A stretch of 19,963 nt of DNA from Candidatus Thorarchaeota archaeon (lineage in GTDB: Archaea; Asgardarchaeota; Thorarchaeia; Thorarchaeales; Thorarchaeaceae): assembly GCA_016839605.1 (NCBI GenBank), contig JAEOTX010000116.1, positions 1-19,963 on the forward strand, read 5' to 3'. Positions 3,282 through 12,392 of the stretch are shown here, piece by piece. The first letter of the stretch is position 1; every line of letters starts with the position of its first letter. Under the pieces are notes generated by a model that was not told the origin of the DNA, ran no database searches, and was given only the letters and a program-made list of their open reading frames with translations. Position numbers and translations under genes: made by a program.

Positions 3282-6200
3282 CTATTCCTCTTTCTTGTCT
3301 CCATTTTCGTCACTGAGAAGACTCTCTACATCATCCAAGAACTTCTCTTCATCAGAGACCTCAGTTGCAGGCTCCTCTATCTTGACCTCTAATTCGGTAG
3401 ATGGTTCCGAATCTTCAGGCGCAGGTACAACCACCAACTTCTCCGGCTCTTCTGCTGGAGGAGGCGTAGCATCGACTCTGACCTCATCAATGGATGTTAA
3501 TGCGAGATTCCCCATCTCAATGGCATCCATGATAATTGTATAGACTCGCGCTTCTTCAAGACCACATGACGTCATCTCTGTAGCAAGCTCTTCCAGGTCA
3601 AAGCCGCCTGCATCATCAATACGATGAATGCGTTCCTCGATGCACTTGGTCTTTCGTGGGAATGATTTGCCCTCTGAAACTGTGTAGTCGCGAAGGAGCC
3701 GCCCATCCATGATGTCATCAAAGAAGGCCGTAAACTGAGCCTCTGTTTCAGGTTCAATAGTCGTCAATGGCACTTCAGGATACATGTTATCGAAGACGAA
3801 TCCGATAGCCTCAGCAAACTCCACCATCCTAAGCTCCTGCCCCTTCGAGGGCGGAGTCAGAGATATGAAGGCGCAGAGCAGATTCTCAGTGGCAACAGTC
3901 CTTATGATATCTGATATTGGTGTCACCACCCAATTCTCTTGGTTAACGTTGAACTCGCTCCTGAAAGTGCTAATAGCACTCACAAATCCTGACACGAGAA
4001 GTTCATCGAGTCCTTCCTTCAACATCTTCGAATAGATGGGAATGCCTGTGTTTTTGTGAAGGACAATCACACCAAGGAGGCCCTTGACATCGTCAAAACG
4101 ACGCTTGACAACCATCGCATCTAGATAGCGCCTTCTCTGTCTTCTGATATACGCTCTGCGACCTGCAAAACCGATTGCTGCTATTCCCATGATTGCTATG
4201 TAGGGAGAGTATCGCCTGATGGTCCTGTTCAAAGCTTCAATCTCGCTGAGAATTGGTTCAAGTTCAGCCTCATAGTAATCTGATTCAATCTCGTAGTTCT
4301 CAATTGTGACGTATATTCTTACTAACGTAGTGGATTCGATACTAGGCATCTGAAATGACGCGGTATATTGGCCTGGTAGACCTTCTACCATCGGCCGAAT
4401 TTCCCCCGGTCCTATTTCACTGATTAGTTGATATTCAACAGCGGCTCCAGGAACGGGATTGCTTGTTTCGGACTCGAATAGGTGAAGAATCAGGGTGTTA
4501 TGCGCTCCCTCCACAGCAGTCAGGCCTTGGTCAATATCGATCTCGATTGCTACAGGTAGCACCTCAAGCTCAAATTCAATAAATCCGCTAACGTGGTCGG
4601 TCATATTTGCTGTGAAGAACACCTGCCACTTACCAATAGAGTCAGCTACAAATCCCAGGAAGTACAGATCCCCTACCTGTGACAAAGACACAGTCAGGCC
4701 TTCAGCAGGCAAAGTAGAGATTGATAGATCGGCCGAGCTTATGTTTTGTCCAGTATCAGTCCTAACATAAGTAAGTGTGAGGTTGTATTCATCGGTGAAA
4801 TAAGTGGAGTCTGATTCCAGCCCTCCAACTATCATTAGCTCAGTTGGAATTGATCTAACAACAAGAGTAAATCCTACCGTAGAGTTTAGGTAATTGGGTA
4901 GTGTGGCACGTATGGCAAACTCGTAGGTTCCTATAACGGAAGGTGTGAGTGTAAGTGTATATTGCCCGCCTGACACTTCAGCTACTGCATGGGCTAATCC
5001 GCTTGGAGGATGCAGCACTAGAATTGTCGCACCTACCAAGCCATTCAATGCGTCGTCTCTGAATGTAATCTGAACCATATGGCTCTGATCAACTGATATC
5101 GTCGCTCCAGAGTCGTCAATCGTCAGAATAGTGGGTATCTCTCGCACTGTGAGACCGAAAGATGCAAACTGGGTATCGTAGTCTGTGAGATTCGCTCTAA
5201 TCAGAATTGTGAAAATCCCTGATGATGCTGCTGTGATCTCAATTGAATAGAAGCCTAGTCCTTCGTTAATCGTAGCTCCGATGCCTAGTCCTGCGGCAGG
5301 GACTACGTCTATGACTGTAACATTGGCCCCGCTCAGTCCGAAGCTAGTTGTATTGGTGAACTGAACAACCAATCTATAGGTATCACCAAAATACGCGAAA
5401 TCAGCAGTCCCATTGAGCCTAATGAGATTAGAACCGCGTCCTCTCACAATTACAGTATAGCCTAGGGTAGAATTGAGATAATTAGTCATACTTGCCTTGA
5501 ACGCCATCTGATAGGTTCCAGGTGTAAGAGCAGTGATGGTCACATTGTAAAGACCGCCGGATAGTTCTGATATCTCAAATGAAAGTCCTCCCGGCGGATT
5601 CAACACACTAACAGTTGCCCCAGCTATGCCTGTAGAGCTCTCGTCTCTGAATGACAGCTCTACCGATTGGCTATCGCCCACAGACAATGTAGTACCTGCA
5701 CTGTCTGCTGTGAGTACGGTGGGGATTTCATTCACCGTTATTGTGAATGCTGTTGTTTGGGTAACATGATCCGTCAAATTTGCATTGATGAAGATAGTAT
5801 ACGTTCGAGCCGCCGATGAGGTCAGAACGATTGAGTAGTAACCATTTCCTTCATCGACGGAGAGTCCTGCAGTCAGACCTGTAGAGGGATCAATGTTTGT
5901 CACACTGACATTTGCCCCAGCAAGCCCGTAGCCTGTACTATTTCGGTACTGAACAACGAGCCTATAGGATGCTCCTAATTGTGATACATCAGAGGTACCG
6001 TTTATGGGAACCAAGACAGTGGCGAACCCTCTCACGATTATGGTATATCCTAGGGTGGAATTGAGATAATTAGTCATACTTGCCTTGATAGCTATCTGAT
6101 AAGATCCAGGTGCAAGGGGAGTGATTGTGAGATTGTAAAGACCACCGGATAACTCCGATATCCAGAATGATAGTCCAGCAGGTGGGTTCAAGACATTGAT

Positions 6201-10734: not shown

Positions 10735-11187
10735 CTATTCAAGACCTGTGATTGTGATTGGACCCTTTGCGTCAGAGTAGCCTCTTACCTCTACAATTCT
10801 AGCTCCAATGCCTCCCGCAGCACCACTCAAAAACCAGATCTGATAGATGGCGGAAACGTAAGTCATGTTGGTTAATGGGCTCCAGCCCAGGCTAACTCCA
10901 AGGCTACTCCAAACAAGCATATCCACGGCTGAAGTAAGAATCATGAAAATGATTCCCGCTGACATGCCTTTGACTAAAGCGCACATTTGGAATCTGAGGC
11001 TGCACCCACCGCCAACAAGATTCCTGTAGGTTATTGGAATTATGACAAGTGGGACTCCAATGAGATATACGCCCCAATAGTACGGATCCCCTACTAATAT
11101 CGTGACAATCAGGAGAGAAACATACAAGGGAATCCAGTATTTTGGAATCCATAACCAAGACTTGATCTCTTCAAATGCCTCCAACAT
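10735..11187 (-). CDS. Hypothetical integral membrane protein (~4 TM helices)
   Basis: 150-aa ORF with four hydrophobic segments and a GGGCSLRFQMCAL loop. It fills the gap between neighbouring features. Confidence 0.75.
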   Translation of the reverse strand: MLEAFEEIKSWLWIPKYWIPLYVSLLIVTILVGDPYYWGVYLIGVPLVIIPITYRNLVGGGCSLRFQMCALVKGMSAGIIFMILTSAVDMLVWSSLGVSLGWSPLTNMTYVSAIYQIWFLSGAAGGIGARIVEVRGYSDAKGPITITGLE

Positions 11188-11307
11188 GAATCACTGAGTC
11201 TATGGGGTTGATTTTTCCTTAATCATATCTTGGGTTGCTACCAGCTGCACCAGACTTGGACAGAGCTGGACACTTATTAGATGGCTGTTTGAGATAATTT
11301 GAACGGG

Positions 11308-11315
11308 CTTATATG
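11308..11315 (+). promoter_or_regulatory. Putative TATA box (cTTATATg) upstream of the candidate ncRNA
   Basis: TTATAT at 11309-11314 is preceded by purine-rich gaacggg, about 25 nt before the first helix of the structured region. No + strand ORF follows. Confidence 0.45.
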
Positions 11316-11337
11316 CTTCGAGCCATCAACACTAATC

Positions 11338-11645
11338 TGAGGCAGACCTGACACCAAAGAGGCCTCACAGAGTCGCCCCAGTGCCGTTTCTGGGAGCACT
11401 TCACTCTGGTGTCCAAGATTGTGCAACTTACAATGAACGGTGTGGCAATTCATGAACGAGTAAAACAGCAACGTCAAAAGGTGCCGTGTCATAGACGGGG
11501 GTGACCTAATCCACGGTTCTAAAGGAGAGTCCTTTAATCCGGAATCAGAAGGAGGAAGATTTCGGAATCGTGATAATAATGCGCCTTTCTGTTATCAGGA
11601 CCGTCTTTGAACCGTGGACGGTCACGCCTATACCATTGGTCTATT
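11338..11645 (+). ncRNA. Candidate ~300-nt structured non-coding RNA of unknown family
   Basis: Hand-found helices: TGAGGC/GCCTCA, GACACCA/TGGTGTC, GAGT/ACTC, CCCAG/CTGGG, ATTGT/ACAAT, GTGACC/GGTCAC, TCCACGGTTC/GAACCGTGGA, TAAAGGA/TCCTTTA, TCCGGAATC/GATTTCGGA and TGATAATA/TGTTATCA. The wobble pairs are G-U on the + strand. It occupies the only large non-coding gap. The ends are approximate. Confidence 0.6.
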
Positions 11646-11660
11646 CCTAAAAAAGGAGGA
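11645..11660 (-). terminator. Oligo-T terminator for the histidine phosphatase gene
   Basis: The minus strand reads tcctccTTTTTTagga about 35 nt after the stop codon at 11688. Confidence 0.4.
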
Positions 11661-11687
11661 ATATCTGCGCATTTTATTGCCTTGGTT

Positions 11688-12392
11688 TCAAACCTTCATA
11701 TTCTCTGCAGTTCGTGCATCAAATACAAATACTTGGTTCTTGATCAATGATAATCCGAACCCTCCGAGATAGGGGGGTCTCTGATCATCGCGTGCTTCCT
11801 CTTTCATAAACGTCTTTCTTGCGCCCATCAGGAACAAATCATGAGTCACAAGGATGTGCATCAAACCTGGTTCTGATGCTCTGAGTATGTCCACTGTTCC
11901 GTTTGTGACTCTATTAGTGAATTCTTCAAACGGCTCAATTCCATCGCCTAACTCTCCCCTTCCCCAAGAAGTTACAAAGCTAGCAACTCCAACGCCATCG
12001 TCACCGACTTTCTCCCAGAGCTGTGTGTCAGTGACAATAGGTCCCAACAGCAAGAATAATGGTTTCACAGATTGCACATTGCCGCCATTCTGTCTGATTC
12101 CCTCAGCGATTTCTTCGGCAGTCTGTTTGCACCTTGGAATCGGGCTATGAAAAATCCTTACGGATCTGCTGGTCGGGAGTCTTCGACCGAATTCTCCTGC
12201 CATGGCTTCACCCAAAGACGTGATGCCGGTTTGAGACATCTCATCCAGACTGCGGATTGCTACTCGGTGCGAATGACGAACAAGTAGCATGAGTGGCCCT
12301 TTCTCTGCAATCGAGTTGGACCAAGCAGTTAGATTCCTTGCGTCTACAAGCCAGTCTTGAGTGTCCCATTCATCCAAATTGCTTGTCAACAT
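11688..12392 (-). CDS. Histidine phosphatase (phosphoglycerate mutase-like) family protein
   Basis: LLVRHS (RHG-type motif), IT..GE..A, HSPIPRCKQTA and ILVTHD. Confidence 0.88.
   Translation of the reverse strand: MLTSNLDEWDTQDWLVDARNLTAWSNSIAEKGPLMLLVRHSHRVAIRSLDEMSQTGITSLGEAMAGEFGRRLPTSRSVRIFHSPIPRCKQTAEEIAEGIRQNGGNVQSVKPLFLLLGPIVTDTQLWEKVGDDGVGVASFVTSWGRGELGDGIEPFEEFTNRVTNGTVDILRASEPGLMHILVTHDLFLMGARKTFMKEEARDDQRPPYLGGFGLSLIKNQVFVFDARTAENMKV

Follow-up and report, generated by a model that had tools for sequence, protein, structure and literature searches.

An intergenic region in the genome of Candidatus Thorarchaeota archaeon had been predicted to hold a single stand-alone non-coding RNA (ncRNA) of about 300 nt, with a TATA box of its own and possibly ribozyme activity. 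The region was analysed here in a 19,963-nt stretch of contig JAEOTX010000116.1 (the window; all coordinates are window positions, and its genome is denoted G000), where the predicted RNA lies at 11338-11645. Comparison with related genomes makes it likely that two modules, each with an origin of its own, are combined in this candidate. Module A (11235-11440) appears to be a gene-less mini-transposon of the IS607 type that contains the scaffold of a TnpB omega-RNA, also called right-end element RNA (reRNA), and module B (11440-11675) is a candidate for an older, conserved ncRNA into whose 5' flank the mini-transposon would have been inserted.

Filled and empty insertion sites

The two parts of the candidate region are distributed quite differently. 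In a DNA search of 60 relatives, 11439-11675 gives a single match per genome in five congeneric species (84-89% identity); for ~11334-11441, each genome has many matches in other genera of the family, on both strands and always with a sharp end at 11441. By BLAST, at least 11 copies of module A were scored per genome in sister genera. The orthologous loci of five sister species read ...CCCTTAATCATATCTTGGGTGTGGCAAT... uninterrupted, at the point where the window carries 206 extra bases between CTTGGG and TGTGGC. Altogether, module A is absent from the orthologous site in six lineages (G002, G005, G011, G014, G015 and L042, the last a metagenome contig). The empty site can be read as ATCTTG-GG-TGTGGCAAT in G002, G011, G014 and L042, and the filled site in the window as ATCTTG-GG-[204 nt]-GG-TGTGGCAAT, with GG at both junctions and no target duplication. 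L042, which is the closest relative as judged by its membrane protein (87% identity), has the same gene order and the empty site. These alignments show that module B predates the insertion of module A.

The existence of empty sites in sister species refutes the single RNA of the original prediction as an evolved unit, and we regard that reading as scarcely tenable. It was not without attractions: the stretch 11338-11645 folds strongly, as had been claimed (-104.6 kcal/mol; z-score against shuffles -3.64 on the plus strand and -2.48 on the minus strand), the higher stability on the plus strand agrees with the strand that had been favoured, a TATA box lies ~25 nt upstream, no Rfam family matches, and a chimeric transcript of roughly this size may physically exist in G000 alone. 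However, the mobile insertion that accounts for the 5' third and the TATA box is missing in six related lineages and present in tens of copies elsewhere. The TTATAT that had been noted is indeed there (11309-11314), as a part of module A and not of module B. Dispersed copies of the MITE kind (miniature inverted-repeat transposable elements), which the original prediction had itself named as grounds for giving it up, are found for both the 5' domain and the TATA box. Two of the proposed helices also fail on comparison. The one meant to join the two ends, AGACC (11344-48) with GGTCT (11638-42), has a 3' partner that reads GGTAT, GGCAT or CACAT in relatives, and it cannot be an evolved helix because it would join a mobile insert to a variable stretch of an older RNA. 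The internal helix TGATAATA/TGTTATCA is lost in relatives, where its 3' strand changes without compensation to GCTACCA, GCTATCA or GTTACCA. What had been described as two domains of one RNA, linked by an A-rich stretch, turn out to be modules that originated separately. The 5' domain alone folds no better than its shuffles (z -0.19), yet its helices covary across copies. No evidence was found for a ribozyme. The part of the prediction that survives is narrower: 11440-11675 alone behaves as an independent, conserved and unclassified ncRNA, and the whole unit of ~300 nt does not.

Ends, copies and target site of module A

Elements of the IS607 family are known to insert at a GG dinucleotide, to end in GG, to generate no target duplication and to have subterminal direct repeats in place of terminal inverted repeats (TIRs) (PMC6188088). 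Module A agrees with this description in its GG target and terminus, in the lack of both duplication and TIRs, and in its subterminal direct repeats. An alignment of 15 copies from 11 genomes, each over the full ~200 nt, defines the ends: the left one has TGCnAACAGCTGC and, after it, a pair of TTGGACA motifs 10 nt apart, and the right one has two TGTCCAA-type motifs and closes with ...ACAATGAACGG(T), with GGT at both junctions in most copies. In the window the right-end motifs, TGTCCAA (11410-16) and TGTGCAA (11420-26), are likewise 10 nt apart and inverted relative to those of the left end, which are probably binding motifs of the transposase TnpA. A combined B recognition element (BRE) and TATA box, which would act as a promoter, sits ~25 nt before the RNA scaffold and at the same place in nearly all of the aligned copies. 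A covariance model of this scaffold (R2) counted three matches in G000, and 62, 51, 48, 23 and 13 in the genomes of five sister lineages.

A left end of the same family, GGGT-TTGATAACAGCTAC..CCAGACAAACCTAGACAT, is present at L099:1236-1280 (G023:C18), directly upstream of a 206-aa open reading frame (ORF) that combines a MerR-type helix-turn-helix (HTH_17/MerR) with a Resolvase domain, the architecture of IS607 TnpA. Because of its insertion site, its ends, its many copies, the tnpB-linked scaffold described below and this left end adjoining a TnpA gene, we interpret module A, from comparative sequence evidence, as a gene-less IS607-type mini-transposon with a TnpB omega-RNA scaffold. An assignment to the palindrome-associated transposable elements (PATEs) of the IS200/IS605 type was considered and dropped, as the GG target, the subterminal direct repeats and the serine-recombinase TnpA fit IS607.

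Guide-RNA scaffold and its link to tnpB

The scaffold at the 3' end of module A was modelled with 11 pairs. Compensatory changes occur in six of them (18 double-change cells), a score that none of 500 shuffles reaches, and the RNA structure of module A is therefore taken as real. Among 30 tnpB loci from five genomes, seven are matched by R2, always at the 3' end of the gene, and the tnpB stop codon falls within the scaffold, just before TGTCCAAG. The matched loci include a 702-aa TnpB-like ORF of G000 itself (L092, C236:546-2654), and L094 represents a complete element that runs from left end through TATA box and tnpB to right end. TnpB proteins of IS607 elements with a RAGATH-18-derived reRNA have been described (PMC11061315), as has the reRNA of TnpB (PMC8612924); the scaffold found here matches no Rfam family, RAGATH-18 included. 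Contigs of four RNA libraries carry the scaffold (11377-11441) running into other flanks, which fits transcription through the right end without proving it; as DNA carry-over is possible, these contigs are a weak hint.

The TnpB-like ORFs that bear the scaffold are unusually long in four of the five loci examined (702 aa in L092, 705 in L095, 731 in L096 and 528 in L093). Pfam recognizes in these long ORFs a C-terminal TNB (zinc-ribbon) domain alone and leaves the N-terminal ~600 aa without assignment.

Distribution and conservation of module B

Module B is known from seven lineages, namely six of the 17 species of the genus and the metagenome contig L042. A covariance model of it (R1) gives one match per genome in these six species (266-303 bits) and a match of 236 bits in L042. 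With R1, 69 further genomes of the family and 150 further Asgard genomes gave no match, and neither did the syntenic gaps of six outgroup species when searched without filters; the sequences behind R1 are nearly identical to one another, which makes the model insensitive to remote relatives. Exact-pattern scans returned one new lineage (L042) and one duplicate from metagenomes, none from viral sequences and the five known species only from genome records, and BLAST of module B against G000 found no paralogue. In the DNA runs X6-X14, 27-36% of the words of module B are present. Rfam 15 gave no match at gathering score on the window, where SNORA50 alone appears at E values up to 10 (E 3.5, chance level); on module B of G000, G002 and L042 the matches are again at chance level (SNORA50, sR33, MIR5292 and FTX; E 1.7-8.3) and lie far below the gathering scores. 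The signal recognition particle (SRP) RNA and the RNase P RNA of G000 are encoded elsewhere, on C101 (91.4 bits) and C46 (158.5 bits), respectively, which bears out the earlier statement that the candidate is neither.

The order of the locus is the same in all seven lineages: AlkZ-like glycosylase, 77-aa ORF, membrane gene, RNA, histidine phosphatase (HisPhos; not in every lineage) and HAD. In outgroup species of the genus the gap between the membrane gene and HisPhos is 67-101 nt long and holds no module B; because these gaps are short and without R1 match, module B is taken as a gain of the sub-clade. Such a clean gain of ~240 nt against the outgroup species, with a left boundary within 0-3 nt of the CTTGG where the mini-transposon later landed, could suggest that module B is itself a domesticated and fixed relic of some other mobile element or guide scaffold that entered the ancestor of the sub-clade at this very GG. 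Yet it is single-copy everywhere, resembles no other locus, no tnpB 3' end and no viral contig, has no TTGGACA repeats, and shows purifying selection instead of decay, so that we consider such an origin very unlikely.

Selection can be judged from pairwise comparisons. Mean identity is 0.89 for module B (0.92 for its core) as against 0.82 for the neighbouring coding sequence and 0.68 for its third codon positions; towards L042 it is 0.82 for module B and 0.57 for third codon positions. A run of 31 nt, which comprises the hairpin UCCGGAAUC/GAUUUCGGA with its loop, is identical in seven of seven lineages, so that this element of the original prediction is not only present but invariant in all relatives, and further runs of ~12-20 nt are invariant or differ in one lineage only. 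These values indicate strong purifying selection at the nucleotide level.

An alternative is that module B is an mRNA for a peptide of 23-27 aa ((M)VIIMRLF..TVFEPWTVT..), possibly of the type I toxin kind. The putative message would be heavily structured, with a Shine-Dalgarno (SD) sequence AGGAGG in a hairpin loop 11 nt before the AUG, at a spacing in the tail of the SD distribution of the genome; the ORF is open in all seven lineages, and four of five changes in the TVFEPWTVT stretch are synonymous. On the other hand, the ratio of non-synonymous to synonymous substitution rates (dN/dS) is 0.74 in the frame of the ORF, no better than in the other plus-strand frames (0.8-1.13), G000 and L042 have lost the AUG, the frame is interrupted by premature stops in G005 and L042, and long runs are invariant at every codon position. 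The peptide, with two Arg in its hydrophobic part, would also seem too short and polar for a membrane helix. The coding potential of module B was rejected on its dN/dS, lost starts and premature stops, and a peptide-coding role appears quite improbable. Module B is thus best described, on present comparisons, as a non-coding, lineage-restricted candidate structured ncRNA of an undescribed family.

Fold, strand and motifs of module B

Module B folds better than its shuffles, with z -3.38 on the plus strand and -2.61 on the minus strand. The consensus fold from RNAalifold has 58 pairs and is made up of a closing helix, a long rod that encloses a junction with two hairpins, and a terminal hairpin (Table 1). 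In the closing helix, the substitutions are transitions that fall on wobble pairs, where pairing is kept by default; the helices of the rod are almost invariant and covariation therefore cannot confirm them. Local hairpins GACCGUC/GACGGUC and GAAAGG/CCUUUC might compete with this fold. Besides a hairpin-plus-U4 3' end, the element has an A/C-rich 5' leader and three CCUUU runs. Transcription in archaea terminates at oligo-T runs, and by this rule the terminal hairpin with U4 would probably be the 3' end and terminator.

It could be argued that module B functions through the minus strand, or at the DNA level, for example as an intercistronic terminator and leader for the membrane gene or as a protein-binding site. 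All five flanking genes lie on the minus strand, a T6 run (the complement of 11649-54) follows the stop codon of the upstream gene, and the minus strand, as its z-score shows, also folds better than shuffles. However, the plus strand is the more stable in all seven sequences by 6-17 kcal/mol, G-U pairs fill 54 cells on it as compared with 34 in the best minus-strand fold, and a U-G pair in the terminal hairpin of G014 is possible on the plus strand only. A T6 terminator at the start would moreover leave most of the element untranscribed, and 236 near-invariant nucleotides would exceed what a terminator or operator needs. We hold a minus-strand or DNA function to be unlikely, and each of these rivals (relic, peptide mRNA and minus-strand element) to be less likely than a plus-strand RNA gene.

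Table 1. Features of the two modules and their insertion site (window positions; helices are written as 5' strand/3' strand).
Feature	Position	Strand	Remarks
AT-rich box TTAATCATAT + CTTGGG	11219-11234		Conserved in seven lineages, recognizable in outgroup species
Target dinucleotide GG	11233-11234		Insertion site of the mini-transposon
Mini-transposon (MITE), module A	11235-11440	+	206 nt, gene-less; 204-nt body + terminal GG; bounds 11233-11438 equally valid
Left-end subterminal repeats TTGGACA (11256-62), CTGGACA (11266-72)	11256-11272	+	10 nt apart; conserved across copies
BRE/TATA GGGCTTATATG	11305-11315	+	G-rich run, then TTTATATA-type box, in nearly all 15 copies
Omega-RNA (reRNA) scaffold	11338-11440	+	Covariation; R2 matches at tnpB 3' ends
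Scaffold helix UGAGGC/GCCUCA	11338-43/11362-67	+	Modelled
Scaffold helix CAGAGU/ACUCUG	11368-73/11403-08	+	Modelled
Scaffold helix CCCAG/CUGGG	11377-81/11390-94	+	Modelled
Conserved structured ncRNA candidate, module B	11440-11675	+	~236 nt, single-copy, no Rfam match
Closing helix GUGUGG/CUGCGC	Within module B	+	RNAalifold consensus
Long rod GUGACC/GGUCAC (11501-06/11620-25), UCCACGGUUC/GAACCGUGGA (11510-19/11609-18)	11501-11625	+	RNAalifold; with extensions, encloses junction
Invariant hairpin UCCGGAAUC/GAUUUCGGA, loop AGAAGGAGGAA (11547-11557)	11538-11566	+	31 nt identical in seven lineages
Small hairpin GGUG/CGCC	In junction	+	RNAalifold consensus
Terminal hairpin UAUUCCU/AGGAAUA with second AAGGAGGAA, then CUGCGC-A-UUUU (U4 11672-75)	11642-11675	+	Conserved in all lineages

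Four AAGGAG motifs occur in module B, two of which are invariant (AAGGAGGAA in the loop of the junction hairpin and in the terminal hairpin). The 16S rRNA of G000 (C82) ends in CCUCCU, whose complement is the AGGAGG of the hairpin loop, and the SD motifs GGAGG, AGGAG, GGTGA and GAGGT peak in this genome at -13 before the first in-frame ATG of long ORFs. This peak implies that G000 uses SD initiation for a sizeable share of its genes; as its 16S rRNA ends in CCUCCU and SD motifs are in use, the AAGGAGGAA loops are perfect SD mimics. It is possible, although we would give the idea a rather low probability, that module B is a decoy acting in trans, whose two AAGGAGGAA loops capture either 16S rRNA, by its anti-SD end, or an RNA-binding protein. 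Still less probable is the broader proposal that module B is the first of a new class of regulatory RNAs in archaea, an SD mimic that titrates in trans the anti-SD or a GGAG-binding protein, and is thereby an archaeal counterpart of the bacterial sponge RNAs, placed in G000 under the promoter of a guide-RNA mini-transposon.

An observation on the same rRNA concerns its length: the 16S match in G000 spans 2131 nt for a model of 1478 positions, and at its 3' end (G000:C82:~4538-4569, minus strand) some 31 nt, UGAGCCAGAUAUCCUGGCUUGGCAGCAAUC, separate the usual GGAUC from ACCUCCU; they may represent a small intron, or else an insertion, immediately ahead of the anti-SD.

Upstream of module B, the TTAATCATAT box lies ~31 nt before the ATG of the 150-aa membrane gene. 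It is probably the TATA box of this gene on the minus strand and possibly also the native, bidirectional promoter of module B.

Several observations weigh against the composite reading as set out here. For module A, a resolvase gene was searched for in G000, whose assembly is 80% complete, and not found, so that mobility there would need a missing or lost TnpA; and in G023:C18 (16.1-24.8 kb) the TnpA-side left end (L099) and the TnpB-side right end (L096) lie about 8-8.5 kb apart and are no more than possible bounds of a single large composite IS607 element with cargo. For module B, covariation falls short of significance (its score is reached by 36 of 500 shuffles, only one pair is double-changed and most are invariable), and the modelled fold rests on thermodynamics and conservation. 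The choice of strand is partly circular, as the fold was predicted on the plus strand: 96% of cells pair on it as against 84% when read on the minus strand, and the reverse test narrows this to 97% against 90%. A promoter of its own could not be placed confidently, and if TTAATCATAT were its TATA box, the start would fall ~13 nt inside the predicted closing helix. The four RNA libraries gave no cover of 11442-11750, a result that is uninformative either way about a module B transcript. Finally, the decoy idea is without direct support, and a homologue of CsrA (PF02599), the protein bound by bacterial sponge RNAs, was not found in the G000 assembly at its 80% completeness.

The gap and its neighbours

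The gap that holds both modules (11188-11687) is the sole one of ~500 nt in the window and, as had been stated in the original prediction, contains no credible ORF: the single ORF of at least 60 aa (11277-11492, minus strand) extends across the boundary between the modules and lacks conservation. The gap is flanked by the membrane gene of 150 aa, whose ATG is at 11187, and by a His_Phos_1 gene of 234 aa, whose stop is at 11688; both are indeed on the minus strand. The latter gene (window 11688-12392; loci L030-L034 and L042) has been lost in four of the seven lineages while the RNA was kept, and where it persists its identity is 57-67%, as against 79-87% for its neighbours, which points either to fast evolution or to replacement.

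Compared with the outgroup loci L035-L040, the left boundary of module B falls within 0-3 nt of the CTTGG where the mini-transposon later inserted, and the GG there (11233-11234) may be a hotspot of repeated insertion. Two of the outgroup species have another insert, of ~270 nt, in this gap (L039:1220-1488 and L036:915-1176), which appears to encode a small hydrophobic ORF of ~50 aa on the strand of the membrane gene.

Discussion

A sequence of events can be proposed for this locus. Module B would have arisen as a single-copy, plus-strand structured RNA gene in one sub-clade of a Thorarchaeota genus. Later, a serine-recombinase TnpA acting in trans would have inserted module A at the GG dinucleotide; module A would have brought along both ends, a promoter and the scaffold, whose counterpart in full-length relatives extends over the 3' end of tnpB. 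Its promoter should then drive a plus-strand transcript from ~11340 through the right end into the flank, the first ~16-20 bases of which (11441 onward) would serve as a TnpB guide against the empty site. Downstream of ~11340 there is no run of at least four T before 11672-75, so the transcript may include all of module B, as a chimeric RNA of ~335 nt that would be made in G000 only and would come close to the RNA originally predicted. As the insertion separates module B from the TTAATCATAT box, the promoter of the mini-transposon may now be its sole driver, and module B would probably be made as a 3' extension of the mini-transposon transcript, by read-through to the U-run at 11672-75.

The locus illustrates how a mini-transposon with its own promoter and a folded guide RNA can pass for one half of a 'new large ncRNA'. 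A clean, dated insertion of the IS607 type, with its empty site in sister species, also offers a ready pair of target and guide for the long TnpB proteins of Asgard archaea. Module B is a lineage-restricted, strongly conserved RNA of 236 nt without a known family, and to our knowledge almost no regulatory RNAs have been characterized in Asgard archaea. Should it be confirmed by experiment, it would be useful especially as an RNA built around exposed SD-like loops, while its narrow distribution over seven closely related lineages limits its general importance. Module A, in turn, would add one more case to the IS607 elements with TnpB reRNA that have already been published; it is module B that is the genuine candidate for an undescribed ncRNA.

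Among archaeal RNAs, module B shares with SRP RNA and RNase P RNA a similar size, a high degree of structure and a long rod-like helix, but it matches neither model (RF01857 and RF00373, respectively). Box C/D, H/ACA and K-turn motifs were looked for by eye, short of a formal test, with no convincing match. A functional analogy can be drawn with the sponge RNAs CsrB and RsmZ, as module B likewise presents GGA-containing purine motifs in loops or single strands over ~240 nt and ends in a hairpin and a U-run. It differs from them in that there is no match in sequence or structure, no CsrA gene was found in the G000 assembly, only two of its four AAGGAG motifs are invariant, and its host is an archaeon; we know of no system of the CsrB/RsmZ type in archaea.

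The closest parallels are those of module A. With the IS607 insertion sequences and TnpB reRNAs described so far (IS607, IS1535 and ISC1926; PMC6188088; PMC8612924; PMC11061315) it shares the GG target without duplication, the lack of TIRs, the subterminal direct repeats and a left end that is also found beside a MerR-HTH/serine-recombinase TnpA; at tnpB loci, RNA of the module A type likewise covers the 3' end of the gene and goes no further than the right end. Unlike them, module A is gene-less at 206 nt and has its own BRE/TATA fused to the scaffold, the TnpB-like ORFs linked to this scaffold are unusually long, and no TnpA was found in G000. MITEs and PATEs offer a second comparison: module A is similarly short, multi-copy (13-62 per sister genome) and transposase-less, and keeps both ends of its parent. 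It is set apart from them by ends of the IS607 type, with neither TIRs nor duplication, and by the retention of a promoter and a functional-looking guide-RNA scaffold.

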